From a phage, in sequence record OZ346187.1: 64,000 nucleotides of DNA. One strand, given 5' to 3'. Numbering within the stretch: position 1 is the stretch's first letter; every line of letters starts with the position of its first letter. This document shows, one piece after another, positions 1 to 51,173 of the stretch. The notes beneath the pieces were generated by a model, which was not told the origin of the DNA, did not search any database, and saw only the letters and a list, made by a program, of their open reading frames with translations. A program made the translations under genes and the position numbers.

Positions 1-332
1 ATGAAGGCGGCGTTAGTTTCAAAAATGGGAAAAAACCAGAAGCGCTTTTGAAGCGAATTTTCGAAATGTGTACGCGAGAAGGCGATTTGGTATTGGATTC
101 ATTCGGTGGTTCGGGAACTACTGCTGCTGTAGCTCACAAGATGAAAAGACGTTGGATCTCAATCGAGCTAGGTGATCATTGTCATACCCATATTATTCCG
201 CGCTTGGAAAAAGTGATCGATGGTGAAGATCAAGGTGGTATTTCTAAGTCTGTAAACTGGGAAGGTGGTGGTGGCTTCCGCTATTACAAACTTACCCCGA
301 CCTTAATTGCGAAAGATAAGTCTGACCAATAA
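1..332 (+). CDS. DNA methyltransferase, C-terminal fragment (5' end lies outside window)
   Basis: Frame is open from position 3 with no upstream stop; translation contains DSFGGSGTT, a SAM-binding motif I typical of beta-class N6A/N4C methyltransferases; stop at 330-332. Confidence 0.6.
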   Translation, partial: EGGVSFKNGKKPEALLKRIFEMCTREGDLVLDSFGGSGTTAAVAHKMKRRWISIELGDHCHTHIIPRLEKVIDGEDQGGISKSVNWEGGGGFRYYKLTPTLIAKDKSDQ

Positions 333-345
333 AGAGTACAATCAA

Positions 346-651
346 ATGATGAAACGTTATAAACCATACACTTTTGAAATCGATTTCGAACTTGACGATA
401 TGTTCACTGTGGAAGCTCAGGCAGTTGTCCAGTTGCCAGACCCAGAGTGCCGTGATTCTGATGTTGACTATTACGGATTTAGACAAATTACCGATGTGCA
501 TGTTTACCACAACGGTGAAGAGGTGGACTTCCACCAACTGCCAAACGATTTGCGACACTCAATTTACAAACGTGCAGCCCGTGAACTAGAGTCCTATCTG
601 GATGCAGCGACGACAGCAGCTGCATTTGCTGAAGAAGTGGGAGGTTTCTGA
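346..651 (+). CDS. hypothetical protein
   Basis: ORF track 307-651; first ATG after upstream stop at ~346; no recognisable motif. Confidence 0.35.
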   Translation: MMKRYKPYTFEIDFELDDMFTVEAQAVVQLPDPECRDSDVDYYGFRQITDVHVYHNGEEVDFHQLPNDLRHSIYKRAARELESYLDAATTAAAFAEEVGGF

Positions 652-1046
652 TGATTACAGGTGTGAAGGTTATCCAATACCACTTAACCAAATTGGAAGA
701 TGCTGAAAAAGAGCTTGCAGAAGTTCTGAATAGTGGATATACTTTGCTATCATGCGCCTGCTCAGACACCTACGCTGTGTGGACACTTATCCGGAAGGAG
801 GAGCCTGCAGGGATCTTGGTGCCAAACCCTAAGATTATCAGTGAAGTGGATGACTGCTCTCAGGACGGCCTGTCAGAAGGCTGGGAAGTATGGGAAGGTG
901 GTGAAAACCCTGCACCAGGTAAGTGGGTAAAATACAAACTACGTAGCGGTGCACAGCACGCTGGATACTCTGATAACCTGGACTGGAGTCATTCTTCACC
1001 GGAATCATTGGTAAGTGCATATGATATCGTTGCTTTTCAGGAATAA
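651..1046 (+). CDS. hypothetical protein
   Basis: 131-aa ORF; ATG overlaps upstream stop (TGATGA coupling). Confidence 0.4.
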   Translation: MITGVKVIQYHLTKLEDAEKELAEVLNSGYTLLSCACSDTYAVWTLIRKEEPAGILVPNPKIISEVDDCSQDGLSEGWEVWEGGENPAPGKWVKYKLRSGAQHAGYSDNLDWSHSSPESLVSAYDIVAFQE

Positions 1047-1058
1047 GGAGAGAGTGTT

Positions 1059-1541
1059 ATGTCAGATTTTATGTGGAAAGTAGGTTATGCCTCTCCTGAA
1101 ATGTGCGAGGCTTGCTTTGTAAAAATAGGCCGCGAGGATATTGACAAAGTGATCTTTAAGTTTCGTGATGTATCTGTGATCGGCAACCGAGTGCTTAAGC
1201 ACTTAAAGAATCTGAAGCTCACCAAAAAGAAGTTCTTCGGACTTTTCGAAGAGAAAGTTGATGCTTGGACCCATTGCATTCAGGAAGCTAAATCTCACTA
1301 CAGTGCTATCGTTACCCCAGAACGGGTAGCCAAGATGGAAGGATTCATCAACAGCACAGAGTTTGAGTGCCTAAAGGCTGCCCTTAATAGTTATCCAAAG
1401 TGCCTCAAACACCTTGACAAGTATGTAGAAAAGGATGGGGAAATGTACCTAACCCTGGACGCATATTATGAGATGCAAGAAATTTTAAATTTAGATTTGA
1501 CATTGGTATCCACCGAGTATACAATAGGTATCCGGGTTTAA
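1059..1541 (+). CDS. hypothetical protein
   Basis: 160-aa ORF preceded by AAGGAGAGAG RBS; followed by terminator hairpin. Confidence 0.5.
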   Translation: MSDFMWKVGYASPEMCEACFVKIGREDIDKVIFKFRDVSVIGNRVLKHLKNLKLTKKKFFGLFEEKVDAWTHCIQEAKSHYSAIVTPERVAKMEGFINSTEFECLKAALNSYPKCLKHLDKYVEKDGEMYLTLDAYYEMQEILNLDLTLVSTEYTIGIRV

Positions 1542-1546
1542 CACTA

Positions 1547-1575
1547 GGCCCTGCCCGAAAGGGTGGGGCTTTTTG
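1547..1575 (+). terminator. rho-independent terminator
   Basis: GCCCTGCCC-GAAA-GGGTGGGGC hairpin followed by TTTTT; same hairpin recurs at 12926. Confidence 0.6.
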
Positions 1576-1592
1576 CATTAGGAGACAGCAAA

Positions 1593-2357
1593 TTGAAATT
1601 CATCTACAAAGAACACTACCACAAAGGTGTTGTGTGGAGTCTATTTGACGGGTCTGGTGGTGCAGTTATTGACTGGGCAAAAGCTGGGTACCTGTGCCTG
1701 TGCTTTAATGCAGAAGGTGCTGACCACGGCAGTTATGCAGAGGTGATAACCGATCATCCTAACATTCACTATGTGGATTATTGGATTGACCCATGGTTCC
1801 CTCAGGAAACTTTTTGCATGTATCCAGCTCCAGACTTTATTCTTGCATTTCCTCCGTGCACGCATTTAGCGGTATCAGGTGCTGCACATTTTAAGAAAAA
1901 GCTGGCTAAGGATCCTTTGATCCAAATTAATGCTGTAAAGGATGCTCGGGTTGCGGAAGAGTTGGGAGAGATTTACGATTGCCCGTGGCATGTAGAGAAT
2001 CCTGTAGGGGTTATGTCCACACTGTGGCGAAAACCTGATTACCGTTTTCATCCTTCGGATTATGGTGGGTATTTACCGGAGGATGATGTAAACCCCTGGT
2101 TTCCTGAATTTATAGCTCCACGTGATGCCTACCCAAAAATAACTTGCGGCTGGATAGGCAATGGATTTATAATCCCGGCCACAAAACCTGTCCCGCAAAT
2201 AGTTGACGCGGTTAGCGGGTATTCCATGCAACACGCCAAGCTGGGTGGAAAGAGTGCAAGAACGAAGATGATCCGAAGCCTCACGCCACGTGGCTGGGCA
2301 AAAGCCGTATTCTTAGCAAACGAGCCTGTAGTAAGGAGCAGAATTAATGGGAAGTAA
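1593..2357 (+). CDS. putative cytosine-5 DNA methyltransferase-like protein
   Basis: LFDGSGG (motif I-like), FPPCTHLAVSG (PC motif IV-like), WHVENPVG (ENV motif VI); probable TTG start after GGAGA RBS; start uncertain. Confidence 0.4.
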   Translation: MKFIYKEHYHKGVVWSLFDGSGGAVIDWAKAGYLCLCFNAEGADHGSYAEVITDHPNIHYVDYWIDPWFPQETFCMYPAPDFILAFPPCTHLAVSGAAHFKKKLAKDPLIQINAVKDARVAEELGEIYDCPWHVENPVGVMSTLWRKPDYRFHPSDYGGYLPEDDVNPWFPEFIAPRDAYPKITCGWIGNGFIIPATKPVPQIVDAVSGYSMQHAKLGGKSARTKMIRSLTPRGWAKAVFLANEPVVRSRINGK

Positions 2358-4425
2358 ATTTATGGCATCTGCATACAACCGTTTCGGTGAGCCAAACCCG
2401 AAAGCAATTAAGTATAAAAGTGGGGGAAGTGTGAAACGAGACTATCGTGATGAAAAAGAGGTTGAAACTGTAGAGACTGTTTTAGAAAATACTAAAATCG
2501 TCCCTGTCCCACAACAAAATATCGGTCTGATGGCTGCACAATATTTTGGTGTGCGATCAGCATTGTCCCAAGAAGACGGTGTGACAGTCACTGCAACATA
2601 TTTCCCATATTACGACCGATACGGAAATCTGTCCGGTTTCAAAAAGCGTGACTGGACTATTCCTAAAGAACAAAGGGGCCACTTCTCCGTTGTTGGCATA
2701 GTAAAGGCCAACTCCCAGATGTTTGGTCAAAAGCTGTGTGCATCTTCCAACAACCGTAAGCAGATTAACGTTTGTGAGGGAGAAGGTGATGTTATTGCAG
2801 CATGGCAGGCTGCATATCAGATACAAGTAAAAGGGATTCTCACCAACGCTAAAGCCCCGGCAAAGGTGAAGCAGTGGGCTAAAGAGGTCCAGGACGGGAT
2901 CGACGCAGTTATCAACGGTGGTGATCTGGCAGGAAAACCCTGCCTGCCTTTTGTTGGAATTAACTGTGGATGTGCAAACGCAGTAGATACTTTTGCAAAC
3001 AATGAGAAGTTTATCCGTAGCTATGGAACAGTTGTGCTGGCAATGGATAACGATGCAGCTAACGAGGTAGAGAAGCAAAAACACGTCATTAAAGGTGTTG
3101 AGGCCACGCACAATATCGCAGCATTTTTGATGGCTGATAACGTTTACCACGTAGAATACCCTGGTGAAGTAAATGACCCTGACGGGGTAAAAGATATCCG
3201 TGACATGCTGAAGGCTAAAAAGCTGGAAGATATTGTCAACATGTTCCGGCACCCTGTTAAATATGTGCCTGATGCTGTGTCGGATTTAGAAGACTTCTCT
3301 ATCGAGTCTTTGCGGAAAAAGACTTCCAACGGGGTAGATATCAGCGCAGAGTTCCCAAAACTGCAAAAAATGCTAAAAGGCTTGCACAAAGGGACACTCG
3401 TAATGCTTACAGGGCCATCAGGGGGCGGTAAAACAACTGTAGCTAAAAAACTGGAACATTGTATTGCAAGATACCTAATGGACCCGACATGCCCGAAGGC
3501 TGATGACTATGAAGAGGATGATCGTCTATGTATGATCCATCTTGAGGAGGACCCAGAGGAAGCAATTAACTCCTTGTATGCAAACCAGTTAGGGTTTGAT
3601 GTTAAAGAGTTTGTTGAAGATCCTAGCCAGTTTTTAACTGATCAAGAACACGCAGAGATTCACCAATCATGGGCAAAAGCTGGAAAAATCAAAGTGTTCA
3701 AACATTTCGGATCTATTCCGGTGGACGAGTTGATTACCAAGCTTAAGCAAATGGTTTGCCTGTACCATTGCCGTTATATTGTGCTGGATCACCTATCCAT
3801 GGTAATTTCAGGGCTTAATGTTAAGGATGAGCGAAAAGAACTGGACATGGCTATGACTCAGCTGGCTGCGTTTTGTAAGCAGTTTAACGTGTTTATCTTG
3901 GTGATCGCTCACCTCAAACGTACAGAGATTGTGCCTCCTAAGGACAAGGATGGTAACCCGTTACCTTTCTGGTATCCTGTGCGAAAAGAGAATTTGCGAG
4001 GATCGGCGGGGCTTGAACAGTTGAGTTGGGTAGTCATAGGTGTCGAGGCCGAAGAAATGGTGGATCGTTCTCGTGGACGTGTCCGTCTGGTAGGTCTTAA
4101 AAACCGTCCAGCAAAAACTCTAGGTATTGCTGACACTTTGGTTATGGACCCGCACACAGGTAAGTTCCATGATGCCAGTAATTGGTACTGGGACAAAGAA
4201 ATGCAAATGTTTACAGACGGAGAAGGTGGGGAGGTTGTTTGGAGACCTCAGGCTATGTTTGAGGATCAGGAGCATGCAGTTGTAGAAACACCTATGGGCA
4301 AGGTTGTGGCTGATAAGGTTGTAACTCCTACTGTTAAGCCTGTTGACACGCAGGAAGACCTCCAGTACGATGATCCATCCTCTGACCCGGTCCCTGGTTT
4401 TGAGGATGATGAAACGCCTTTTTAA
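2347..4425 (+). CDS. primase-helicase (TOPRIM primase fused to DnaB-like helicase)
   Basis: TOPRIM-like CEGEGD and VLAMDNDAANE; Walker A GPSGGGKTT; Walker B IVLDHLS; 692 aa. Confidence 0.7.
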   Translation: MGSKFMASAYNRFGEPNPKAIKYKSGGSVKRDYRDEKEVETVETVLENTKIVPVPQQNIGLMAAQYFGVRSALSQEDGVTVTATYFPYYDRYGNLSGFKKRDWTIPKEQRGHFSVVGIVKANSQMFGQKLCASSNNRKQINVCEGEGDVIAAWQAAYQIQVKGILTNAKAPAKVKQWAKEVQDGIDAVINGGDLAGKPCLPFVGINCGCANAVDTFANNEKFIRSYGTVVLAMDNDAANEVEKQKHVIKGVEATHNIAAFLMADNVYHVEYPGEVNDPDGVKDIRDMLKAKKLEDIVNMFRHPVKYVPDAVSDLEDFSIESLRKKTSNGVDISAEFPKLQKMLKGLHKGTLVMLTGPSGGGKTTVAKKLEHCIARYLMDPTCPKADDYEEDDRLCMIHLEEDPEEAINSLYANQLGFDVKEFVEDPSQFLTDQEHAEIHQSWAKAGKIKVFKHFGSIPVDELITKLKQMVCLYHCRYIVLDHLSMVISGLNVKDERKELDMAMTQLAAFCKQFNVFILVIAHLKRTEIVPPKDKDGNPLPFWYPVRKENLRGSAGLEQLSWVVIGVEAEEMVDRSRGRVRLVGLKNRPAKTLGIADTLVMDPHTGKFHDASNWYWDKEMQMFTDGEGGEVVWRPQAMFEDQEHAVVETPMGKVVADKVVTPTVKPVDTQEDLQYDDPSSDPVPGFEDDETPF

Positions 4426-4487
4426 TGTTTAACAAAGAGTGGGAGGGGTAGTACAACCGCCTCCCCTTTAAGGAGAACGTTTATACT

Positions 4488-7400
4488 ATGAGTATGTGGA
4501 ATTTTGACTTTGAGGCCTCAGGTCTTCTGGACGAGGAAGATCTTTACTACCATTGTGGCCTGTTTAAAGAGTTGAATAAAAATAATTTTATGTTGTTTTT
4601 GCCTATCAATGATAGATCTCATTACAGTGAAGAGGAGGTTGAAAAAGCAAAACAATTTATGCTGGCAAAGCAAGATATCTATCCTAGCTGCTCTGTCCGT
4701 ATTGCGGATTTCAGCCAGCTTGAATGGTGGTTAACCGGGAACTCCGATTGGTCACCCACATCATTAAGTTGTCACAACTGTTTTAGTTATGACTTTATCT
4801 TGATGGAGAAGCTGTCTGGTATTCATTTTGATATGTTCCGTGATCCCAAGTGTATGGGGACAATCAATAATCATCAGGTGAACCTGTTCGACACTCTGCC
4901 AATGAGTCGTATACTATGGCCCGACAGACCGTTACCTAAAGGATGCCCTGATTCTGTATACAATCCTGTTACAAAACGTATGCAGCAGGTAGGTCCTCAT
5001 GGCCTAATGGCGTGGGGGTACGCTTTAGGAAACCAGAAGGTTAAAATTGATGACTGGAGAAATTTACCTCTGTGGAAGTATGTTGATCGTGTATTCGAGG
5101 ACGTTATCATCCAGGAGCTGCTCTGGAAAGAGCTGGTAGCGGAATCAAAAGGTGTATTCTACGGCAAATCTGACATGCAGAACTTTATGTACGATCCAGC
5201 CAAAGAGAAGCCGAAAGGGTTCAAGAAGATTACCTGGAAGAATGCATTACGCCGAGGCATGCTGCAGCACTTCCTGATGGAGCTGCAGGCCCGTCAGGGT
5301 GTATACTTCGACATAGATGGAGCTATTGCTTTACGTGACCGTTGCGATGCGTGGATGAAAGAAATCGCTGATCGTGTTGAACCACAACTACCTTTAAAAG
5401 AGCTGTCAATGTCTCAGCGGCCCAAGTTCCCTGAAAAGCCGTTTAACCAAGACGGGACAATCTCTAATAATGGTTGGAAATGGTTAAAAGATAAGCTTGG
5501 CTATCCTGTAGACATGAGTGCTTTAGAGTTCAAAGCCCCGCCTAAGCGAGCATTTACCTCTACAGGAGATGTCAGCAAGATGGGGATAAAATGGTGTGAA
5601 GAGATGGGCTGCAAAGACCCCGATAAGATGGCTGATTTCTTGAGAGGCTATATTAAGGGCACCTCCACACCACAACCCTTACCTAAAGAGCTGATGGATC
5701 AGGCAATAAGTGATCTGCAGCAGAAGCGAATGCCTGACTGCAAGATACCTATGAAAATCAGCAATCAGGACGACATCAAGCGATACCTAATCAGTGCTGG
5801 TTGGCTCCCAACAATGTGGAGAACTAAAGATGTAACTAAAGACAGCAAGAAGAAAGCTTTACCTGATGCAGATGTTGATGCACGAGTATATGCATATATG
5901 GACGAGCTTTTGGAGTCAGAGTATTGTGACCTAATTATCAACTTCTGGAACAAAACTGATGCTAAGTTCCAGACAACCGTGCACAAGTTCCGAAGCTTTC
6001 CTAACTCCGAAAGGATTAAAAAGGAAGTATTCGGGAAAATACGTAGAAAAGCCAGGGCACTTATTACTTCTCCGCAACTGAAAGATACGTTTGGACACCT
6101 ATGCCCAAATCTTGAAAAATTGAACGGAGAGATGGCTAAAGATATCGTCTTGTGGTTATCATTGCGAAACCGCAGATCGGTCCTTGATCCAATCAAGGAG
6201 GATAAGGTTGATACTGGTCTTCTTAATCACCCACGTTTGAAGATTGACCATAAGCTTCCTGCTAAAAGCTCTGGATTAACAAACACTTCCAGACAGAAAC
6301 ACAGTATTTGTGCAAACATGCCTAAACCATCTCCTAAAGTGGTTATGGGTAAAGAGATGCGTAGTCTGTGGGGTGTTCCTCCGGGATACTTTGAGATCGG
6401 TATTGACGGGTCCAACTTAGAGCAGCTTATCGGGGCTTGGGGTGCCTTTGAGTTCGACAACGGCCTGTATTATGATGTTGTAAGTAATGGCGATGCACAC
6501 TGTTATTCAGGAGATACACAAATTCTCACGGAGAAAGGGTGGGTGAGGTTTGAAGATCTTGATCCGGGAACACAAGTGTTCCAGTACGATCACAACACCT
6601 CGTCAATGAACCTTGTTACTCCATTAAATTACGTTAAGCGTAGTTATTGTGGGGATATGTATCATTTCCACAACAGTAGTGTGGATTTTATGGTTACAGA
6701 TCAACACAGGATGCTGACTGTGGATCACAGAAGCAATAAATTGTTTGAAGATTTGGCAAAAGACCTGAAAGCAGGTAAAGGGTCTAATTCAGGAAGAAGG
6801 TTTATCCATGCGGCAGAGTTTTATGGGAATACAACCTTATCTCCTGCCCAGGTTAATTTGCTTATTGCTATTCACGATGATGGGCACTTGCATACAAATA
6901 AGGACGGCAGCATCGTGTGCAGGATTCAGGTCGGAAAGGGAAGAAAAGTTGCAACGCTTTTAGATACTTTTTCTGCTCTAAGCCTTAGTTATGTAGAGCA
7001 GAGCGGGAAAACCACAAAAGGGGGCTTACTGGCGAGAAGGTTCCAATTCCACGTTCCGTCCTGGGTATTTGAGTTTTTGGACAACAATAAGGATTTCACC
7101 TATAACCTGATGAACCTTGATAAAGAATCTAAAAACCTGTTTATAGCTTCTTTATCTAACTGGGACGGGTGGGTATCTTCCGAAGGTGGAAAGGTTGCTT
7201 ACTACTCCCAGGCCGAGTGCAGGAAGAAATCTGTAGAGGTGGTGTCTGCGCTGGCTACTCAGTGTGGTTTACGGAATAATACGGTGGCGATTCACAAAAA
7301 AGGTCGTGCCGTGCAGCACAGAATCACAATTGGTAGCAAACAGAGAGCAGGGTTGCTGACACTATCTAAAGAGTCTGTCGAGGTGAGCGGTTCTTTGGTT

Positions 7401-7880
7401 TATTGCGTTACCGTCCCTTCTGGAGCAATCATTGTGAGAAGGAATGGTAAAGTGGCAGTGTGCGGTAACTGTAATAACGCCAAAGCTTACTCTTCTGTAG
7501 CAGGCAAGGAGATTTCCCGTAACGATGGTAAACCTATCACGTATGGGGTTATGTATGGGGCACAAAAAGATAAAGTTGCAGATATGCTGGACATCTCCCC
7601 AGAGTTGGGACAAAGGGTAATCGATGCACTCTGGGATGCCAACCCAGGTCTTAAGGGGCGCAAAGAGGATCTGGAGAAATTCTGGGAAGCAACAGGTAAG
7701 AAGTTTATCTACTCTTTTGATGGTCATGCTATCTGGACCCGATCTAAACACTCTTTACTTAATGCATACCAACAAAATGGCGGTGCATCGTTGTGTGACT
7801 TAGTTGGAATACTCATGCACCACCAGATGGTGAAGCGTGGGTGGTACGATGAAGGTGTTCGTCGTATTATTTATTACCAT
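4488..7880 (+). CDS. DNA polymerase, family A (T7 gp5-like), exon 1, containing an intein
   Basis: N-terminal FDFEASGL...YHCG exonuclease motif; motif A-like IDGSNLEQL; motif B-like RNDGKPITYGVMYGAQ; ORF stop at 7884-7886 is assigned to the intron. Confidence 0.8.
6501..7469 (+). mobile_element. intein with LAGLIDADG-type homing endonuclease, in-frame between polymerase motifs A and B
   Basis: Starts CYSGDTQILTEKG (intein block A); two LAGLIDADG-like motifs (LLIAIHDDGHL, FIASLSNWDGWV); ends ...VAVCGN followed by Cys at 7470; 969 nt, frame preserved. Confidence 0.65.
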
Positions 7881-8132
7881 AAATAACATTGTGGCTTCAT
7901 AGAGTAATCTATGTCGAATAACCTCTTTAACTGCGGGAAGCCTAAACCTTATGGCAAGGTAATCCGCAACGAAGCGCTCAAAAGAGCGAACGCTCAGAGG
8001 CCATTCCGAAAGGAAGTAGACCAGCAAGTGCGGTCGAAATGGGAGGATTCCTGTGGTTGCTTATCATAGGAATATGAGATGGTCCGATCCTACGTGAAAA
8101 CGTATGGCTATGCACGTAATGGTGCGGGGTAG
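7881..8132 (+). mobile_element. ORF-less group I intron in the DNA polymerase gene
   Basis: P-like CTGCGGGAAGCC and Q-like AATCCGCAACG elements; exon ends in U (7880) that can pair with GUGG 11 nt downstream (P1); ACGU-GAAA-ACGU hairpin near 3' end; last nt G (8132); joining 7880 to 8133 keeps frame. Confidence 0.55.
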
Positions 8133-8510
8133 CTTAACGACCTACCTGAACTATTGGATGAGTACCAACTTCAAGTGCCTGACACACCGAAGTATAAGAC
8201 TGTGTACACCTTCGACACAATTGAAGAACTGGAAGCATTTAAGGCAGAGCAGGAAGCCAAACTTCATGTGTTCGACGGTCATAAGTACAAAAAGGCACGC
8301 AAGGATGAGGACGGAAACGAAGTGGTTGACAGAGACGGAAACACGGTGTACGATCCTATCCTGAACGATGACGGAAAGCTTGAACTTATCTGGAGCCCTG
8401 TGGGTGAAATGGTGGTACATTGCTTCTGGCAAGCTTCTAAAATGATGGGAGTCCCGTTCCAGATCACAGGTGAATACTTGTGTGGTCGTAATTGGGGTGA
8501 TTGTCACTAA
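8133..8510 (+). CDS. DNA polymerase, family A, exon 2 (C-terminal)
   Basis: Frame open from 8133; C-terminus ...CGRNWGDCH resembles the Pol I-family terminus (GENWDQAH-like). Confidence 0.55.
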   Translation, partial: LNDLPELLDEYQLQVPDTPKYKTVYTFDTIEELEAFKAEQEAKLHVFDGHKYKKARKDEDGNEVVDRDGNTVYDPILNDDGKLELIWSPVGEMVVHCFWQASKMMGVPFQITGEYLCGRNWGDCH

Positions 8511-8559
8511 TGTAAACTATCAACACATGGAAGTGTTGTTGAGCAAAGAGGAGACTTTT

Positions 8560-8844
8560 ATGGTAGTAGAACCAACAAAAACATTTACATCCATGACTAT
8601 CCCTGTTATTATGCAGGTGGAGTGTGTTCAGGTATCTCAAGTGTGGCCTGGCACCAAAATCCCAACAGGGCCTGATTTCTTTCAGGTTGGGAAAGTGTAC
8701 AATGTCTGGAAGGCACCAGATTGTTACCCTTTCATTAAAGATGACCGTGGGATGCTGTGGTATCTTGGAAATGACTTGACACTGCACCTTGGGAATGCTA
8801 TTATTGCAGTATTCAGACTTAACAAGAAGGAGACCGATCAATGA
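8560..8844 (+). CDS. hypothetical protein
   Basis: ORF track 8470-8844; internal ATG at 8560 follows AGGAGAC RBS and lies after the polymerase stop. Confidence 0.35.
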   Translation: MVVEPTKTFTSMTIPVIMQVECVQVSQVWPGTKIPTGPDFFQVGKVYNVWKAPDCYPFIKDDRGMLWYLGNDLTLHLGNAIIAVFRLNKKETDQ

Positions 8845-9068
8845 CGACTTTGGTTAAAGCCACCTTTGTAGAAGAAAAGATGACAGACATGTCATTCTTT
8901 AAAGAAGGAAAGACCTACGAGGTTTATTCCGATAAAGCTCGTGCAAACAAAATGATTAAAGACGAGGAAGGGGTTGACTGGTATATCTCTCACCTGGCAA
9001 ACGGTGAGTATCATATCTACGGAACCACTTTGCTTGCCAAGTTTGTAGTTGTTGAAGAGGACCTATGA
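8841..9068 (+). CDS. hypothetical protein
   Basis: 75-aa ORF; start overlaps upstream stop. Confidence 0.4.
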   Translation: MTTLVKATFVEEKMTDMSFFKEGKTYEVYSDKARANKMIKDEEGVDWYISHLANGEYHIYGTTLLAKFVVVEEDL

Positions 9069-9259
9069 AAGTAAAGTATCTTGCTGAAGGTATGAATAGG
9101 TATTTTACCCTTGGTGAAGAATATTGGCCCTTTACAAACAACGGCGATGTCTACGTGAAAGATAATTTCGGCACGCCGTGGTTTCTGCACTCTAATGGGC
9201 TGGGATACTCCATTTACTGCGGTGCAGTGAACAACACAACTCTTGCAGAGTTCGTTTAG
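9065..9259 (+). CDS. hypothetical protein
   Basis: 64-aa ORF; start overlaps upstream stop. Confidence 0.35.
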   Translation: MKVKYLAEGMNRYFTLGEEYWPFTNNGDVYVKDNFGTPWFLHSNGLGYSIYCGAVNNTTLAEFV

Positions 9260-9269
9260 AGGAGGTAGG

Positions 9270-9641
9270 ATGTTAGTAAAAGGTACCCACACAGTCAAAC
9301 AACGTATTGAAGTTGAGATTGATGATTGTGAGCTGAAGCATATTTTACGGTCATGCTCCAACGTTTTGCTCCTTAGTATTCTTCAGGAGCGAGCGGAGAA
9401 CGAGTTCTTAAATGCATTGGCAGGCCGTCCCGGTGACTTCTGTGTGCGTAAGCGTGGTGACAACAAGTCGTGGTTGTGGGAGATCGATGCCGACTGGGAT
9501 TACCACAAAAATGAGGGTATAGATGAGCCTATTCGTGAACTGACGGACAAAGAGATTCAGATGTACAATGAAGTTTGTCATTGGGCAACACGCCAACAAA
9601 TTTACCTAGACCCTGTGTGGCTGATTGAAAATAGTCGTTGA
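9270..9641 (+). CDS. hypothetical protein
   Basis: ATG at 9270 preceded by GGAGG RBS; in frame with ORF 9243-9641. Confidence 0.4.
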   Translation: MLVKGTHTVKQRIEVEIDDCELKHILRSCSNVLLLSILQERAENEFLNALAGRPGDFCVRKRGDNKSWLWEIDADWDYHKNEGIDEPIRELTDKEIQMYNEVCHWATRQQIYLDPVWLIENSR

Positions 9642-9666
9642 CAAGAAGTAAGGTTAGATGTAAGAT
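9638..9666 (+). promoter_or_regulatory. sigma70-type promoter
   Basis: TTGACA, 17-bp spacer, TAAGAT. Confidence 0.5.
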
Positions 9667-9717
9667 ACTCCTCACAAACAGAGTATTGATTGTTAAATAA
9701 TTAAGGAGACCTCTAAG

Positions 9718-9945
9718 ATGAAAATCATGTTGAAACCAGAATGCGTTGCAAACGACCGAGCTTTTAAAGATTGCACACTTGGCGCTACTTATGAAGCAGA
9801 GTTTTGTGAGAACCCTTTGGTAAAAGCCCTTTTGGAAGAAGTACTTTATCACAAGAAGAGCTTGATGAGCTGGAAAACTCAGCACAGTGCCTTACCTTTA
9901 AAGATGATGAAGGAGACTCTGTCTGGTGCACTGTTAACGAAGTAG
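9718..9945 (+). CDS. hypothetical protein
   Basis: 75-aa ORF with AAGGAGAC RBS. Confidence 0.4.
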   Translation: MKIMLKPECVANDRAFKDCTLGATYEAEFCENPLVKALLEEVLYHKKSLMSWKTQHSALPLKMMKETLSGALLTK

Positions 9946-9971
9946 TTTTTGTAAAAACTGAACATTAATAC

Positions 9972-10000
9972 TTGACAACAGCGATAGGACCTAATACAAT
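9972..10000 (+). promoter_or_regulatory. sigma70-type promoter overlapped by a palindrome
   Basis: TTGACA, 17-bp spacer, TACAAT; inverted repeat GATAGGACC / GGTCCTATC brackets the -10. Confidence 0.5.
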
Positions 10001-10031
10001 GGTCCTATCAAAACGAAAGGGGACCACAGCA

Positions 10032-10292
10032 ATGACCAAACAATATCAACGAATTAAAGCCAAGGTTAAGCCAGACTATCTAGAGAAGGACTCTGCTTTT
10101 CGGGACTGCACAGCTGACAAAGTTTACACAGGGGCCGTCCTGTTGAACGATAAACTTGAAGTAGATGTGCTGGGTAAAGAGGCCGTTATCGAGGATGACA
10201 ACGGTGACTGTGTTTTCTGCACCACACGAGAGCTAGAAGTCTTAGAATATTTCGGTGAAATCTTCAACTCCTTAGACGACGAGGAAGCGTGA
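10032..10292 (+). CDS. hypothetical protein
   Basis: ORF track 9972-10292; ATG at 10032 follows AAAGGGGA RBS. Confidence 0.35.
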   Translation: MTKQYQRIKAKVKPDYLEKDSAFRDCTADKVYTGAVLLNDKLEVDVLGKEAVIEDDNGDCVFCTTRELEVLEYFGEIFNSLDDEEA

Positions 10293-10681
10293 TGAAAAAT
10301 ATTTGGGATATCGATATCTTTGAAGCCTCTAAGCTTGACGGTGCTGATGGAGTGATTATGGTGTCTGATGGCAAGGCAACACTAACTTCCGGAGATATCA
10401 TCTATGCCTTGGACGAGCTGGCGCTTCTGAAATCTACCGGTAACACTTTGGAGGAGCGTCTTCAAGGATTCGCTTTCAAAGAAGGTACAAATACAGCCAT
10501 GATGTGCACCACACGGACAGTTCAGGTTGGTAACGGTGTCTATATGATTATTGCTGTGTGTCCTAAATTCAGCAACGTCAACAAAGATGATGCTGACGCG
10601 GTCAACGATGTGGTTGTTCTCTTCGTGGGTGACGCTATGGCAGATCTGATGAATGCAGGAGAAGCAGCAAATGAAGACTGA
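10289..10681 (+). CDS. hypothetical protein
   Basis: 130-aa ORF, start overlaps upstream stop. Confidence 0.4.
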   Translation: MMKNIWDIDIFEASKLDGADGVIMVSDGKATLTSGDIIYALDELALLKSTGNTLEERLQGFAFKEGTNTAMMCTTRTVQVGNGVYMIIAVCPKFSNVNKDDADAVNDVVVLFVGDAMADLMNAGEAANED

Positions 10682-10973
10682 AAACATCACCCCAGCAGGG
10701 TTCTTAAAAGTATACCGTGAACTGCTATATACTACAGAGGACAGTGTTCTAGAGTATCCAGAATATCTTTTGCTGTATAAGTATCTGCAGGAGGCTGGTG
10801 AAAATCTGCCAGTTAGTGCAGAAGGTGGTCCAAACTGGATATACAGCGCATGGAGAAAGGTTGACATTCTCCCAGACCCAGGTAAAGATATGGTAGTTTG
10901 GCAGCTTATCAACAACATCGGGATTCCAATCTTTGATGAAGCTGTTAAAATCTATTTTGAACTTGACGATTAA
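10671..10973 (+). CDS. hypothetical protein
   Basis: ORF track 10653-10973; ATG at 10671 after GGAGAAG. Confidence 0.35.
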   Translation: MKTENITPAGFLKVYRELLYTTEDSVLEYPEYLLLYKYLQEAGENLPVSAEGGPNWIYSAWRKVDILPDPGKDMVVWQLINNIGIPIFDEAVKIYFELDD

Positions 10974-10990
10974 TATCAGGAGACCTTAAG

Positions 10991-11236
10991 ATGACTGAAG
11001 CAGTTGCTCGCGCAGGACAGAAAGTACGTTGTGTTGAAGTAGGTTTTGGTGGCAAAGGGTGTCAAAACTTGACTCAAGGCAAGGAATATGCTGTTATCTC
11101 TGGTGGTGGCGACGAAAGTATTGTGTTCGAGGGCCACATCCTGGATGCTGAAAACTTTGAAATCTTTGACGACGATGGGGATCCGATCACCTGCCTGCTG
11201 GACGGGAATTGGGGAACTTTCGAAGTGATTGGCTAA
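10991..11236 (+). CDS. hypothetical protein
   Basis: 81-aa ORF after AGGAGAC RBS. Confidence 0.4.
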   Translation: MTEAVARAGQKVRCVEVGFGGKGCQNLTQGKEYAVISGGGDESIVFEGHILDAENFEIFDDDGDPITCLLDGNWGTFEVIG

Positions 11237-11319
11237 CAAATACCTATTGTAATTTACAGAAGGGGATGCTAAAATAGTGTCTCCTTCTATGTTGTTCAAA
11301 TAAAATCGGAGATTCCATA

Positions 11320-11688
11320 ATGGAACAAATGAACGATCAAGAGTCGGTTGCGATGAACGAGCAAGAACAACCTCAAGAATTTTTCTTAGGGTTAAGTAAA
11401 GATCAAGTGTCTCTTTTGCTAGTGCTTTCTTCTTTCATGGGAAGACTTCAGGAGCTCACACAACAACCGGAGGCTGAACAATTATTTCAGGCTCTGCGTG
11501 AAGAAGAAAAATATCGTCGTTTGGACTATGCCTTAGGTTGGGTAGCTCAACAACGAGATATGCTGATGGCCCTCTCTGGGACCACAAGTTTTGCAATGGG
11601 CCTGTTGGCTCAAGTTCAGGACAAATTAATTCAAGCAGGGTTTGCACACACGGCAAACACTAACGAAGAACAAGGAGACAAAGAATGA
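11320..11688 (+). CDS. hypothetical protein
   Basis: 122-aa ORF after GGAGA RBS. Confidence 0.4.
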   Translation: MEQMNDQESVAMNEQEQPQEFFLGLSKDQVSLLLVLSSFMGRLQELTQQPEAEQLFQALREEEKYRRLDYALGWVAQQRDMLMALSGTTSFAMGLLAQVQDKLIQAGFAHTANTNEEQGDKE

Positions 11689-12911
11689 GCGTTATTCAAC
11701 AATTCGCTAACCCGATGAATCCGCGTGAAACTGTTTTACTGGCTCACGGCATGATTAAACGCGTCAGCATCAAGCCTATCAAAGGTGCTGATCCTACAAC
11801 AGGTATTAAAACCACTGTGTGGCAAGGTAAGAAAATTGAATCCAGCCACACCATCTCTTTACTGATTTCTGAACTGGATTCCTCTGATAACCTACTTCAA
11901 GGTGGTGAAGAAGTTTGGATCAGTATGGGCGATAAGCTGCTTAAACCGGGTCATCAAGACTCTGTCTCTGTTAAAATTGATGACAAGTGGGAAACCGTAA
12001 CGCCAGGATGGATCGTAAATATCCCTTTGAAGGCAAACGAGCATAACGGTAAGACCTACTACAAAGGCTCACTGGCTAAGATGGTTAAGCTGGGTGCAGG
12101 AGAGGCTCCAGCAGCGACTCAGCAGCAAAAACAGCAACAAGGTGCACAATCACAAGGCCAGAAGCAGAAACCTCAGCAGAATGCCAATCAGGACGTTTTA
12201 CGCATCTATGGTGATGTGACTCAGATTGTTGGCAACGTGGTTACTGTAAATGACCACAAGATTGGCGAAGGTGCTATGGTTGTAACTGATGAGCAGCTTA
12301 AAGACCTGGTGGTAGGTGGTCGTGTTGCAGCCATTGTTGACAAAGACACTGGAAACATTATCAGTGGTTTCAAGGCCTATCCTCCTAAGGCAGAGAACGG
12401 CACTCAAGGCTCCGGTGGCAAGCGTAAATCCTCTTACGACCCTATCGGTGTGGAAACGGGGCATAGCATCAATGCGTTGCAGATCATCCTGGATCGCGGG
12501 TTTAAGGTAGACGACCCACTGGGCGTGGCTAAAACACTGCACGTAGTCACCATTGAGCTTAAGAAAGAGTATGCTCAAGCCACCAACCGAACTGAAGATG
12601 AAGTAGGTGCCAGTGTCGGTAATGCGGTGTTGAACGCTTGTCGCCGTATTGACAAGAAAACGAAAGTTGATGATTTTGCAGCGGCAATTACTGCAGAAGC
12701 AAAAGATGTCTTGACTAATCTGGCTGAGCCGTTGTACGATTGGATCAAGAACGGTGCTGGGTCAACTGACCATCAAGAACCTCAGGCTGCCAAACAGGAA
12801 GCAGCTCCACAGCAAAACACTGTAGACGCTCCTCCTGTAAATGATGGGGAAGATGACCCGATGGATCAGAATCCAGCACAGTACGCCTTTGATGATGACA
12901 TCCCTTTTTAA
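11685..12911 (+). CDS. putative single-stranded DNA-binding-like protein with SSB-type acidic C-terminal tail
   Basis: 408 aa; Q-rich low-complexity linker (QQQKQQQGAQSQGQKQKPQQ); terminates ...FDDDIPF, the canonical bacterial SSB tail. Confidence 0.4.
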   Translation: MSVIQQFANPMNPRETVLLAHGMIKRVSIKPIKGADPTTGIKTTVWQGKKIESSHTISLLISELDSSDNLLQGGEEVWISMGDKLLKPGHQDSVSVKIDDKWETVTPGWIVNIPLKANEHNGKTYYKGSLAKMVKLGAGEAPAATQQQKQQQGAQSQGQKQKPQQNANQDVLRIYGDVTQIVGNVVTVNDHKIGEGAMVVTDEQLKDLVVGGRVAAIVDKDTGNIISGFKAYPPKAENGTQGSGGKRKSSYDPIGVETGHSINALQIILDRGFKVDDPLGVAKTLHVVTIELKKEYAQATNRTEDEVGASVGNAVLNACRRIDKKTKVDDFAAAITAEAKDVLTNLAEPLYDWIKNGAGSTDHQEPQAAKQEAAPQQNTVDAPPVNDGEDDPMDQNPAQYAFDDDIPF

Positions 12912-12925
12912 CAATTAGTTAACAT

Positions 12926-12954
12926 AGCCCTGCCCGAAAGGGTGGGGCATTTTT
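12926..12954 (+). terminator. rho-independent terminator
   Basis: Same GCCCTGCCC-GAAA-GGGTGGGGC hairpin as at 1547, followed by T-run. Confidence 0.6.
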
Positions 12955-12973
12955 GTATAAGGAGATCTGAAAA

Positions 12974-13390
12974 ATGACATTAGAAGATATCATTGTTAAA
13001 CCTGAGAACTATGACCAATACAACCTGTCAACTCAATCTGTAGACCTTGGATGCGCCACAGTTAGTGCGTGGCTGGTTAATGGAAAAGAGCTGGACAAGT
13101 GCTTAGAAGCTCACATGTCTGTTAACAAGTTTCTGGATGAAAATACTCACTGGCTTGAGGGTGCTGGAGTATATGCTTCATGGTTGGAGAGCATGGGCTT
13201 TGACTATCAATCTGATGAAGGGTGGTGGAGCTATCTGGCTATCTGTCCAGAAACACTGCAATGCTTCATGAAATACTCTGAAGATCTTGAGTACCGAGCG
13301 GTGGTTGATAGTGCTATTGCCCGTTATAGCCGTAAACCTTTTTCCCATGACATTAAAACTGTGGAAGAATTTGTTGAAGTTTTCTGTTGA
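12974..13390 (+). CDS. hypothetical protein
   Basis: 138-aa ORF after AAGGAGA RBS. Confidence 0.4.
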   Translation: MTLEDIIVKPENYDQYNLSTQSVDLGCATVSAWLVNGKELDKCLEAHMSVNKFLDENTHWLEGAGVYASWLESMGFDYQSDEGWWSYLAICPETLQCFMKYSEDLEYRAVVDSAIARYSRKPFSHDIKTVEEFVEVFC

Positions 13391-13416
13391 CACAGGTTGA
13401 AAGGTGTGCAATTATA
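13387..13416 (+). promoter_or_regulatory. sigma70-type promoter
   Basis: TTGACA, ~17-18 bp spacer, ATTATA. Confidence 0.4.
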
Positions 13417-13486
13417 ACTTCATAAAACGGGAGGACGCGATGAACGAAGAAAACTGGGATGTATAACTAACAGGAGACCACTGCCC

Positions 13487-13684
13487 ATGATTTATCGAAT
13501 CCGTGTAAGAGAAGATGCACCAGGCTGTTACTTTGACTGGCGTGGGTGGTGGTTTCTCCACCCAATGGATGGACTCACAGATAGAATGCTGGATGCTGCC
13601 CTTTATACAGATACCGACATAGAATATAATCTCTATCTGAAGGACGGTATAGATAACGGTCTATTTGAAGCAATTCCTGTGTAA
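13487..13684 (+). CDS. hypothetical protein
   Basis: 65-aa ORF after AGGAGAC RBS. Confidence 0.35.
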   Translation: MIYRIRVREDAPGCYFDWRGWWFLHPMDGLTDRMLDAALYTDTDIEYNLYLKDGIDNGLFEAIPV

Positions 13685-13752
13685 GAGACTGTGATAGCCA
13701 TGTTTTATGATCTTCCTGTAGCACCACCACCTGTTGAACCTGGAGAACTAAG

Positions 13753-14620: not shown

Positions 14621-14645
14621 CAGCTGACTTTTGAGATGGTATAGT
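14617..14645 (+). promoter_or_regulatory. sigma70-type promoter
   Basis: TTGACA, 17-bp spacer, TATAGT. Confidence 0.5.
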
Positions 14646-14676
14646 CACCACAACGATTGAGAGAGGGAGCACCACT

Positions 14677-15068: not shown

Positions 15069-15072
15069 GAGG

Positions 15073-19888: not shown

Positions 19889-19889
19889 A

Positions 19890-36565: not shown

Positions 36566-37426
36566 ACCGTTGACAGAAGTTAACGTATTGATTTGATAGA
36601 GCAAAGTCTGCATGCTGTCAAATACGTCTTTATCTGTCATTTGCATTGCAACAGTCTCAGCATCTGGCAACCAATGTTCCTGGCAAAATTTAAGGTTCTT
36701 CTCATAAGTCGCCTCAGCATACTGTGCCAAATAATGGTCAATATGGCTCATAGTCTGACCCCCATATTGAGCACTAGCTACTGCACTAGAGATTTGGCTA
36801 AGGATTGTTGTTGCAACCCCTATTGACTTCGGCTTACTGACATGGGCGTTACCAATGTTGAATCCGTTTTCCAACATATCTGGATAATTTACCAAACAAC
36901 AGTTTGTTAACGGACTGATCAAGTAGTCAAGATCATGCACATGGATGAAGCCTTTATTGTGCTCTTCTGAGACACGGTCTGGCAGGATCTGTGTTGATGC
37001 AAGGTGTTTGCTAAGGATGCCTGCAAGCAGGTCACGATGAGTGTGTACATGATTGGTAGGCTTATTTGCGTTTTCTTTTGTAAATTCATCACAAGTTCGA
37101 TCCAAGAAGCCACTAATATCTGCAAGCAGTTTTCCACCTGCCTCTCTGTTATTATCTCTTGTCTGTCTATACTGGATGTATTCTCTGGCTGCACATTTTA
37201 AACCCATATCCATAAGAGCATCTTCAACAAGGATATGGATATTTTTTACAGAGATCGTGCACTGGTCGGTTGGTAGATTGTTAGCAACAACTTCATTAAC
37301 CGCACAAGCGATCCGGTAAGCTTCTTCTTCAGTATGTCCAGACTCAAGTAAGGCGGACTCTGCCGCCTTGATCACCTTAATTCCGTTATAGACCTCTTCT
37401 CTACCGTCCCGTTTTACAACTTTCAC
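36566..37426 (-). CDS. nrdD: anaerobic ribonucleotide reductase NrdD, exon 1 (ATP-cone, N-terminal)
   Basis: N-terminal ATP-cone-like MKVVKRDGREEVYNGIKV; ends ...SVNG at the proposed 5' splice site; ORF stop 36563-36565 is intronic. Confidence 0.7.
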
Positions 37427-48506: not shown

Positions 48507-49645
48507 CAGATTGCTCCAACATTTCTAAGAACGTTAACAAGTTTTGTCTGGTCATTAAATGTCCGCTTCATATACAAACAGTCAAAAATTATACTCATCC
48601 ATTGACCTACGGAAATTCTACGATCAATACCATTGAAGTCAGTATACTTAACAACACCTTTCGGGAACCACTTCTTGTACTGATCAATAATAGCCACCCA
48701 CATCTCCTTTGGAGTGCTGCACTGAGACAGTAGGTAGAATGCTGAGGCATCCCCGAACTTACCCTTACCGATAAGTCCTTGATACGGCTTGATGTTGTCA
48801 GCAGAGTCACCACACAGCATTTGGTATCCGAAGAACAGCATCCCGTAACCGCCAACCTCTCCATTAGGCTTCATGAAGATGTTCCCCATACCGTTATCGA
48901 TCAGCATAGGGGTTTCCCTTACAAAATCTCCCTTATCGTTTCGCATGGGATCGAACACAAGCCCCGGTAGTGTTCTTTGGTCCTTATCAATAGAGATAAT
49001 AAACTTGTTGAACTTACCTGTTTTTTGGTAGTGGTTCCAACCTTCAAATTGCTGGATAGCTAACCAGTCGTCAGCCTCGATACCGTTGATCACTTGAGCA
49101 TTATACTGCTTTTGGAGATACTGTCTTGCATCTCCAAGCAGCAGTGGTCTAAGAGTATTGTTACGGTTGGCTTTATATCTTTCCGGCATGGGAAGATCTA
49201 GTCTGAAATTACCTGTGCCTCCAAGTACCCCCACGCACCGATCTTCCGGAATACCGAGATAATTAAGGACTGCATTAGCTTTACACTTAATTGTGTGCAA
49301 GCAGTTCTCTACAGGATCAGGGGTTTGGATATCCAAGACATCGAAATCTTCTCGTGTCCACGGAATAAACTCCTTGCCAGCCTTTTTACATGCAGCTTCA
49401 CGGTTGGTATTCTCAGCTTTTAACCAACCACCAACGGTGTTCTTCTGCCGCCCCCAGAACTCTGTTCGTGTTTTAAACATCTTCTTACGTCCGGAGGCTT
49501 TGTGTGTTACCTCAATTGTCCTTTTTTCACAACTTGCTGCAGCTTGATATGCAACCTGATCGAAGTCATAATAAACTATAGCGTCAGGTTCAAGAAGATC
49601 AGCTAGACAATCTATGGACTCAATAAGTGGATATTCTCTACTCAA
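48506..49645 (-). CDS. 5'-3' exonuclease / flap endonuclease
   Basis: YKANR motif and H3TH-like GDSADNIKPYQGLIGKGKFGD. Confidence 0.65.
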   Translation of the reverse strand: MSREYPLIESIDCLADLLEPDAIVYYDFDQVAYQAAASCEKRTIEVTHKASGRKKMFKTRTEFWGRQKNTVGGWLKAENTNREAACKKAGKEFIPWTREDFDVLDIQTPDPVENCLHTIKCKANAVLNYLGIPEDRCVGVLGGTGNFRLDLPMPERYKANRNNTLRPLLLGDARQYLQKQYNAQVINGIEADDWLAIQQFEGWNHYQKTGKFNKFIISIDKDQRTLPGLVFDPMRNDKGDFVRETPMLIDNGMGNIFMKPNGEVGGYGMLFFGYQMLCGDSADNIKPYQGLIGKGKFGDASAFYLLSQCSTPKEMWVAIIDQYKKWFPKGVVKYTDFNGIDRRISVGQWMSIIFDCLYMKRTFNDQTKLVNVLRNVGAI

Positions 49646-49946
49646 AGACCCTCCTGTTAGTTATTCTGCAAGATGGTTGGATGCTGTAATGAAATGCATC
49701 ATCACTCTCTGCAATAAGTGACTCAACATCCCAATACTTTTCAAAAAGGAACGGATTAGACCCCCAGTGGTGGGTTATTTTCATCAATGAGTCTGGTAGC
49801 AGATAGCCACAGATCTTAATTACATCACCAGGTTGAATTGTGTTTTCATAGAGGTTGCTTTCCTTCTTCAGAATAATACCTTTATGATTCTCGTTTGCAT
49901 ACAACTGGACAATATCTTTATCTTCAACAATAAAAATTTTAAGCAT
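49638..49946 (-). CDS. hypothetical protein
   Basis: 102-aa ORF. Confidence 0.4.
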   Translation of the reverse strand: MLKIFIVEDKDIVQLYANENHKGIILKKESNLYENTIQPGDVIKICGYLLPDSLMKITHHWGSNPFLFEKYWDVESLIAESDDAFHYSIQPSCRITNRRVFE

Positions 49947-50005
49947 GTCTAGTTCTCCTAGTTTATAAATATCTGACTGATAATATCAGATTAATAACAC
50001 TTTTG

Positions 50006-50302
50006 TCAAGACTTTTTAGTCTTTCTTGGAGAGCTTTTTGTTGATCTTTTCCTTTTGTGGTAGATTCCAAGTGCAGCGTTTTCTTGGGCGCACGTTTTAA
50101 CAGTTCTCAGAGAAGAACTTTCAGCTTTAGGCAGGTTTAACTCCCACCAACCGAGCCAGTAAAGTTCTGATTCCGACAGCTGCTCAGATTCAGCCTTCCG
50201 ATACAATGATTGCATACCTCTAATGATGTCGTCCAGAGGTGTATCGAATACAAAAGCTGTCTTATCAAATTTCTCTTTTACAGGTTTCTTAGCCATGCTC
50301 AC
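50006..50302 (-). CDS. hypothetical protein
   Basis: 98-aa ORF, basic C-terminus. Confidence 0.4.
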   Translation of the reverse strand: MSMAKKPVKEKFDKTAFVFDTPLDDIIRGMQSLYRKAESEQLSESELYWLGWWELNLPKAESSSLRTVKTCAQENAALGIYHKRKRSTKSSPRKTKKS

Positions 50303-51173
50303 CTCTCACACAATCATCCACTGACTTCATAAACTCTTGCACCCAAAGTGCCCCTATTTGAGGAACTATGGCGTTACCGAAGCCTTTGTGGCGAGACAAT
50401 CCCATTGGGGTGGATAGCCCATCAACCAACAAGGGAATGCCGGGTTCAGGAAGTTTACGCCATTTTCCGTCTCGGCATAGATACTGTCTTGTATGCTCCC
50501 ACACCCGTAATACATCCTCACCTGCTCCCACAGATTCCCAGGACTTAATGACTTCCTGCCAGTTGCTAAGCGTTGTTGCTTGCGCCTTTCCATCGCTTCC
50601 TGAGATCTGCACCCTACCTGAGTTACCGTAGGGGTTAACCACGTTGCTAACTGCCCCGAAGTAAAGTCGTTCGCGGCGGTGCGGGGCGTTGAGGATTGCA
50701 GCATTAAGTATGGAAGCCCCGAAGCTGTAACCAGCGTTTTCCATTTCATTCTGCATATCGTCGAGCCATCCGGATTCAATCGCTTTTGCAACCTGCTCTC
50801 CAAACATGAACTCAGGTTTAAGCTGTTTAACGAGCCGGAGGTATGTTGGTGCAAGATGTCTTGGGTCAAATTTTCCACGTTGCTTACCTGCTTGAGAGAA
50901 AGGTTGGCAGCACGGAGATCCTGTGCATACCGACCAAGTTTCTGGAATGCCAGCAAGTTTCAAGGCCAAAGGCCATCCACCTATACCAGCGAAGAAGTGC
51001 CACTGTGTGAAACCTCTAAGATCTTCTACAGTAACCTCTGTAATAGAACGATCATCCACCTCGCCTTGAGGAAGTAGTCCTAAAGATATTAGATTCTTCA
51101 ACCAAGCAACTGCATCTTTATCATTGTCATTGTAGTATACCACACTTAATTCTCCAAATACTGATGTATCCAA
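50289..51173 (-). CDS. cytosine-5 DNA methyltransferase
   Basis: Motif I FAGIGG, motif IV GSPCCQPFSQAG, motif VI-like FGEQV, motif VIII-like HRRERL, motif X-like GFGNAIV. Confidence 0.7.
   Translation of the reverse strand: MDTSVFGELSVVYYNDNDKDAVAWLKNLISLGLLPQGEVDDRSITEVTVEDLRGFTQWHFFAGIGGWPLALKLAGIPETWSVCTGSPCCQPFSQAGKQRGKFDPRHLAPTYLRLVKQLKPEFMFGEQVAKAIESGWLDDMQNEMENAGYSFGASILNAAILNAPHRRERLYFGAVSNVVNPYGNSGRVQISGSDGKAQATTLSNWQEVIKSWESVGAGEDVLRVWEHTRQYLCRDGKWRKLPEPGIPLLVDGLSTPMGLSRHKGFGNAIVPQIGALWVQEFMKSVDDCVRGEHG

Follow-up and report, generated by a model that had tools for sequence, protein, structure and literature searches.

In this work, we analysed a 64,000-nucleotide stretch of phage DNA (sequence record OZ346187.1; the whole stretch is called the window below), which comes from a Vequintavirus, an rV5-like Escherichia coli myovirus; more than 100 public genomes match it at 94-99% nucleotide identity. 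The window carries five DNA methyltransferase genes, here named M1 to M5. We consider it likely that they encode five orphan S-adenosylmethionine-dependent enzymes that methylate the phage DNA at a few short motifs, and that the resulting shielding is limited to those sites and comes at the cost of exposure to retrons. A sequence-only reading had pointed out the five open reading frames (ORFs), and all of them are present at or very near the positions that it gave, each matching a methyltransferase family far beyond chance. It had further described the enzymes as belonging to different classes. Several classes are indeed represented, but they amount to two C5-cytosine enzymes and three amino-methyltransferases (one beta-class, two gamma-like). 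The boundaries of M1, M2 and M3 stand, whereas the likely start codons, taken from the BASEL annotations and the N-termini of homologues, shift M4 to 44971-45789 (start at 45789) and M5 to 50289-51143 (start at 51143). The five genes are as follows.

M1, 1-332 (ORF 3-332, frame 3), plus strand: 3′ end (109 codons and the stop) of a putative beta-class N6-adenine methyltransferase gene (PF01555)
M2, 1593-2357, plus strand: Dcm-like C5-cytosine methyltransferase of 254 amino acids, TTG start (phrog_757)
M3, 30009-30542, minus strand: 177-amino-acid NPPY N6-adenine methyltransferase with predicted GATC (Dam-like) specificity (phrog_799)
M4, 44971-45789 (alternative TTG start at 45819), minus strand: 272-amino-acid gamma-class NPPF methyltransferase (phrog_5172)
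M5, 50289-51143 (284 amino acids, GTG start at 51143) or 50289-51173 (294 amino acids, TTG start at 51173), minus strand: HhaI-type C5-cytosine methyltransferase (PF00145)

All five appear to be orphan methyltransferases that have no restriction partner, since a Pfam scan of eight flanking ORFs revealed no nuclease domain beside them, and since M1 and M5 come and go alone: both are clean presence/absence genes, each by itself between conserved neighbours. A scan of every window ORF of at least 60 codons with motif regular expressions yielded no sixth methyltransferase candidate. M2, M3 and M4 are core to Vequintavirus, and M1 and M5 are accessory. The heavy investment in DNA modification that had been proposed is real, with three core genes. 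No more than 4 of about 120 Vequintavirus records contain all five; the number of genes is unusual as judged within this genus, the literature on usual phage counts having given nothing usable. All five genes already carry a methyltransferase annotation in public genomes, and the observation is correct but ordinary. Curated models gave no equivalog-level assignment for any of the five in NCBIfam, and sequence searches of M2, M3 and M4 against the chains of the PDB returned nothing significant. Fold comparisons based on AlphaFold models were made for M2 and M4.

M3, the gene of which adjoins a ClpP-like protease gene, matches phrog_799 (8e-67) and carries its NPPY motif at residues 84-87. It is identical in 176 of 177 residues to bas51_0176 of phage WalterGehring (Bas51), with a single conservative change (V vs A) near the C-terminus. 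Escapers of Bas51 from the retrons Asa1 and Squ1 were reported to carry D69G, D79G or T83P in ‘the N6 adenine methyltransferase’, and the T83P exchange abolishes triggering of both retrons (Nakamura et al., PMC12548924). Bas51 has three N6-adenine-type genes, and D69, D79 and T83 occur only in the 177-amino-acid one, bas51_0176. Nanopore calls of N6-methyladenine (m6A) in wild-type Bas51 numbered 1405 at GATC, 509 at GTAC and 576 at other sites; in the T83P mutant the numbers were 35, 511 and 349, respectively (PMC12548924). The 64 kb of the window contain 326 GATC and 122 GTAC sites, which corresponds to about 1426 and about 534 adenines when scaled to 140 kb. The counts for Bas51 are close to these expectations and therefore indicate near-complete methylation at GATC and GTAC. 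Unmodified phage DNA had been named as an observation that would speak against the sequence-only reading; the DNA of the relative Bas51 does carry m6A at both motifs. By its near-identity to bas51_0176, M3 is predicted to be the GATC m6A enzyme of Vequintaviruses: the length, the genomic position next to the ClpP-like protease gene and the residues D69, D79, T83 and NPPY are shared, and one substitution separates the two, although the measurements belong to Bas51 and M3 of this phage is known from its gene. The gene was found in 119 records at at least 90% identity. M3 is Dam-like in action, yet lies outside the curated families by threshold, with scores of 19.2 against a cut-off of 28.1 for PF05869 (Dam) and 16.1 against 97 for TIGR01712 (phage_N6A_met).

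Orphan methyltransferases of phages are a classical anti-restriction device, and broad anti-restriction protection had been proposed for the five genes. This proposal is contradicted by phage CarlMeissner (Bas48), which carries all five methyltransferase genes and is strongly restricted by EcoRI and EcoRV. The efficiency of plating of Bas48 was 4e-4 to 1e-3 on EcoRI, 0.02-0.09 on EcoCFT_II, 0.09-0.56 on EcoPI and about 0.4-1 on two type I systems, and no plaques were obtained on EcoRV (BASEL raw data). T-even phages plate at about 1 in the same BASEL assay tables, and the BASEL authors describe the Vequintavirinae as ‘exceptionally susceptible’ to restriction-modification (RM) systems. Phages Bas50, Bas51 and Bas52, in which at least M1 is present (M1 to M4 in Bas51), were restricted much like Bas48. 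Since a phage with all five genes is still restricted, any protection would be limited to methylated motifs and is not broad, a view to which the BASEL authors also came. As a separate observation, the sensitivity to EcoCFT_II and EcoPI differs by orders of magnitude among close Vequintaviruses. On EcoCFT_II, the efficiency of plating was about 0.02-0.5 for Bas48 and Bas49, and Bas50 and Bas52 were nearly plaque-free; on EcoPI, it was about 0.1-0.8 for Bas48 and Bas49, and Bas51 gave no plaques (BASEL raw data); the presence of M1 or M5 does not explain this pattern.

For M2, the gene of which adjoins the primase/helicase gene and lies immediately upstream of it, the lack of a catalytic cysteine context on alignment had been named as a further observation that would speak against the sequence-only reading. 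In an alignment of 36 homologues, however, the PPC motif is invariant (P87, P88 and C89), as are E135, N136 and P137. The alignment contains the blocks FDGSG, FPPC, SG and ENP and a C-terminal RSLTPRG block, and FDGSG, FPPC and ENP, which are invariant or nearly so, agree together with the fold with the C5-methyltransferase superfamily. M2 matches phrog_757 ‘DNA methyltransferase’ at 5e-87. A Pfam search with M2 gave no match at E≤0.1, so that the gathering score of PF00145 is not reached, and one homologue (P0054, 55% identical) lies barely over the cut-off (24.7 vs 22). The best PDB matches of the AlphaFold model (predicted local distance difference test score, pLDDT, of 89) are the catalytic domains of DNMT3A/B (E about 4e-6), which make up the 49 best of the 50 structural matches listed. 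Judged by its motifs and fold, M2 is a genuine member of the C5-methyltransferase family. The gene itself is present in 117 records at at least 90% identity, and its family extends to about 1500 phage records.

A 711-bp Dcm gene of phage K42, the product of which contains the residues C82, E128, K175 and K176, was shown to place 5-methylcytosine (m5C) on the multicopy single-stranded DNA of a retron at CCWGG and to trigger retron Ec86/Eco1; the genome of K42 is 95% identical to that of phage KarlJaspers, Bas06 (bioRxiv 10.1101/2023.08.16.553469). The KarlJaspers gene bas06_0055 is likewise 711 bp long and has exactly the residue numbers of the K42 enzyme. M2 is 54% identical to bas06_0055 over 235 residues (E = 2e-86). 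Both proteins belong to the same phrog_757-type family and have a DNMT3-like fold in common, and the catalytic cysteine, the glutamate and the first lysine align. On the other hand, M2 has an isoleucine in place of the second DNA-binding lysine (K176) and is extended at its N-terminus, and the phage is a myovirus, whereas K42 and KarlJaspers belong to the Drexlerviridae. From this relationship, we infer that M2 may make m5C at CCWGG or a similar site. The methyltransferases are not only potential shields but also liabilities, with M3 setting off the retrons Asa1 and Squ1 and the M2 family setting off Ec86. Published experimental support therefore already exists for M3 and for the family of M2, and the m6A at GATC and GTAC as well as the restriction sensitivity of this phage group have also been published.

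Taken as a mechanism, the methyltransferase genes are probably expressed together with the neighbouring replication and nucleotide-metabolism genes, because they sit among them. The enzymes would then act on newly synthesised phage DNA and methylate a small number of short motifs in it. M3 would produce G(m6A)TC at practically every site, and another activity, independent of M3, would produce GT(m6A)C, as both are seen in near-identical relatives. In this way, the phage DNA would copy the Dam mark of the host and probably its Dcm mark too. The likely benefit is a putative, site-limited shield from nucleases that cut those particular sites when unmethylated. The cost would be abortive infection triggered by retrons that respond to M3 methylation, and likewise to that of the 54%-identical M2 homologue.

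Only the last quarter of the M1 gene lies in the window. The fragment matches PF01555 with 66.2 bits (gathering cut-off 26.7; 5.4e-18) and phrog_67 at 5e-28. Genes for 441 amino acids that are found in phages such as Bas51, isim and CarlMeissner share 96-99% identity with it at their C-terminus; the full gene has 1326 nt in isim, Bas48 and Bas51. Motif I (FGGSGTT) is the sole catalytic-domain motif of M1 inside the window, and DPPF would lie upstream. In the full Bas51 orthologue, which is 96% identical over the fragment and reaches 145 bits on PF01555, DPPF lies at about residue 73, ahead of FGGSGTT at about residue 364, so that the window holds the C-terminal part of M1. This motif order in the orthologue would place M1 in the beta class and suggests N6-adenine chemistry. 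M1 shares the strong PF01555 match, and by its orthologue would share the order of DPPF followed by FGGSG, with CcrM, YhdJ and the type III Mod proteins, but it lies below every NCBIfam equivalog cut-off and has no Res subunit. As no Res-like partner was found among the ORFs flanking M1, the label ‘Type III Mod’ in some records reflects similarity only. M1 is accessory, being present in about 81 of about 120 Vequintavirus-type records at at least 90% identity, and phage MaxTheCat has no M1 gene between the same neighbours.

M5 matches PF00145 with 73.3 bits (cut-off 22; 3e-20), M.HhaI at 4e-13 and also phrog_363. It carries the motifs FAGIGG, SPCCQ, EQV, RRER and GNAIVP, which agrees with membership of the C5 family. 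The full C5 motif set that had been claimed for the gene holds for motifs I, IV, VIII and X, while motif VI reads EQV instead of ENV. Compared to M.HhaI and classical type II C5 enzymes, motifs I, IV (PC), VI, VIII and X follow in canonical order; M5 differs in that motif IV is PCCQ and motif VI is EQV, the target-recognition region is short (about 80 residues) and there is no cognate endonuclease. Megablast identified M5 in four records only, namely HdK5, pangalan, CarlMeissner and Alma, and the CarlMeissner gene is 99.9% identical to that of the window. The next relatives are at most 47% identical and occur in K1G-like siphoviruses. This rarity (4 of about 120 records), together with the location of the closest other relatives, suggests a recent horizontal acquisition of M5, which may add a further m5C motif. 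The M5 cassette comprises exactly 870 bp (50297-51166) between a 98-amino-acid ORF and a putative homing endonuclease gene, and in the alignment Bas49 and Bas51 have about 13 bp in its place.

Instead of shielding against host nucleases, the methyltransferases might serve the phage's own DNA transactions, for example the control of mismatch repair, replication, packaging or gene expression, or the marking of its own DNA against phage nucleases or homing endonucleases. In mismatch repair, MutH acts on GATC that lacks methylation. All five genes are located within replication and nucleotide-metabolism modules, and M3 is at least 99% identical in 109 records, which points to strong purifying selection. 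Additionally, M5 abuts the putative homing endonuclease gene, and the Dam enzyme of the host evidently does not maintain the methylation of the phage GATC sites, as this mark disappears in the T83P mutant. However, M3-null Bas51 plates like wild type on a host that is free of retrons (PMC12548924). Because these loss-of-function mutants plate normally, an essential role of M3 is not evident, and since the homing endonuclease gene next to M5 is also found in phages that lack M5, the two do not form an obligate pair. On balance, a role in the phage's own DNA transactions seems rather unlikely, and we favour methylation of a few motifs with a site-limited shielding effect.

M4 matches phrog_5172 at 4e-129. 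The gene was found in 121 records at at least 90% identity, as expected for a core gene of Vequintavirus, and 54%-identical homologues occur in Phapecoctavirus. The homologues keep D.YYT, then EPSAG.G.F and then an invariant GNPPFG, which is the gamma-class order X-I-IV. With the AlphaFold2 model (pLDDT 92.5), TrmN ranked first among the fold matches, and M.BseCI, M.TaqI, a type I M subunit and CamA came next; the matches cover the catalytic domain with E values of 1e-8 to 1e-6 (1e-7 to 1e-6 for M.TaqI, M.BseCI and CamA). M4 resembles M.TaqI, M.BseCI and CamA in the fold of the catalytic domain, in its NPP(Y/F) motif and in the linear order of the motifs, but is far smaller (272 vs 380-580 amino acids) and has its own compact C-terminal domain. 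It stays below all Pfam thresholds (Eco57I 15.5 vs 25.3, MTS 13.7 vs 23).

These results allow for the alternative that M4 methylates RNA (tRNA or rRNA) or another substrate, which would leave four DNA methyltransferases in the window. Besides TrmN, archaeal ‘putative RNA methyltransferases’, Erm and DIMT1 are among the fold matches, the label ‘predicted RNA methylase’ is given to some homologues, and one homologue exceeds the threshold of the Pfam family RrnaAD; in addition, PHROG 5172 is labelled ‘unknown function’ and the DNA-methyltransferase models of Pfam are all under threshold. On the other hand, M.BseCI, M.TaqI, CamA and the type I M subunit score nearly equal to TrmN, and the set and order of D.YYT, EPSAG.G.F and GNPPFG are typical of gamma-class DNA N6-adenine enzymes. 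M4 also matches phrog_799 ‘DNA methyltransferase’ at 2.6e-13, and the m6A motif GTAC of Bas51 still lacks an assigned enzyme. We therefore regard a non-DNA substrate of M4 as improbable and retain it among the DNA methyltransferases.

The enzyme that makes GT(m6A)C is presumably M1 or M4. An assignment by elimination fails, as Bas51 carries both genes, and the Bas51 paper (PMC12548924) was the only one found in the literature on GTAC phage methylomes. It is conceivable, though we put it forward tentatively and with somewhat less than even confidence, that M4 is the GT(m6A)C enzyme and that M5, on its rare cassette, contributes another m5C specificity which changes the sensitivity to some natural defence system of E. 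coli. Site-avoidance statistics were considered as a guide to specificity and proved too ambiguous. GATC is not depleted in the window (observed/expected ratio, O/E, of 0.98), and CCWGG is depleted under the Markov model (O/E about 0.58) but not by base composition alone. GTAC, with 122 sites, is the second most depleted 4-bp palindrome in the window (O/E 0.58 under the Markov model, 0.51 by base composition), even though the close relative Bas51 carries m6A at this motif throughout.

The surroundings of bacterial M4 homologues were inspected as well, and no conserved nuclease or restriction partner was found alongside them. Small ORFs downstream of the homologues were considered as a possible partner and rejected, since those of two genomes are related neither to each other nor to the phage ORF 44553-45008. 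A 42%-identical homologue on a contig of Poseidonibacter ostreae (L011, 1701-5795) lies directly downstream of a type I RM methylase/specificity-subunit pair and an IS1595 transposase, surroundings that resemble a defence island.

The weakest of the alternatives, that the five enzymes jointly give broad protection against host RM systems, would be in line with the classical role of orphan phage methyltransferases and with five enzymes providing at least three distinct motif activities, but is very improbable, as the plating of Bas48 with the same five genes (4e-4 to 1e-3 on EcoRI and zero plaques on EcoRV, where T-even phages reach about 1) and the similar results for Bas50, Bas51 and Bas52 largely refute it for the six RM systems tested.

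Several points weigh against the interpretation of five DNA methyltransferases with site-limited shielding. This phage is known from its genes alone, and the methylome and the biochemistry come from relatives. The specificities of M1, M2, M4 and M5 are putative, as is the anti-restriction benefit of all five enzymes. An identity of 54% leaves M2 free to differ from CCWGG specificity, and the top fold match of M4, TrmN, is a tRNA m6A enzyme, so that a non-DNA substrate is possible. For M3, no fitness role is visible in the laboratory, the M3-null Bas51 being equal to wild type on the retron-free host. Finally, the scarcity of GTAC and CCWGG in the window (Markov O/E about 0.58) is unexpected if methylation had fully lifted selection against these sites.

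As a cautionary point, resistance to restriction does not follow from a count of methyltransferase genes, and the same enzymes make the phage a target of retrons that sense methylation. A small practical gain for phage therapy and for genome engineering of rV5-like phages would come from assigning an enzyme to the GTAC mark and a motif to M5; beyond such bookkeeping, the finding matters little.

For the assignment of the phage, positions 1-20000 and 29000-52000 of the window were used as megablast queries against a database of 50,697 phage records. About 150 records matched, and more than 100 of them showed 90-99% identity, nearly all being Escherichia rV5-like myoviruses of the genus Vequintavirus; the gene order agrees with that of the BASEL genomes. 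The matches include some 20-25 GenBank entries without annotation that bear the name ‘Campylobacter phage’ (MG0656xx, host C. jejuni); at about 94-95% identity to this phage, they look like mislabelled or contaminant genomes. The plus strand of the window carries a replication module with helicase, primase/helicase and DNA polymerase genes, and a long nucleotide-metabolism module on the minus strand contains ribonucleotide reductase, thymidylate synthase, exonuclease, endolysin and ligase genes.

Some further features of the window were observed in passing. Seven tRNA calls by ARAGORN (Arg, Tyr, Ser, Thr, Met, Pro) cluster at 61162-61974. The call at 61631-61729 is odd, with 99 nt and a four-base anticodon, and may be a pseudo-tRNA or an intron-containing tRNA. 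The anaerobic ribonucleotide reductase gene nrdD (34506-37426, minus strand) is interrupted: an insert that holds a 177-amino-acid ORF (35808-36341) separates its two ORFs (34506-35714 and 36563-37426). This insert is probably a mobile intron, because Bas49 and Bas51 have the matching annotation ‘joined CDS plus homing endonuclease’. The DNA polymerase gene (4488-7886, plus strand) is a single unbroken ORF of 1132 codons in the window. In relatives, it is annotated as a joined coding sequence of two pieces (MaxTheCat) or as a shorter coding sequence followed by an HNH endonuclease gene (isim), and the content of homing elements at this locus therefore varies among these phages.

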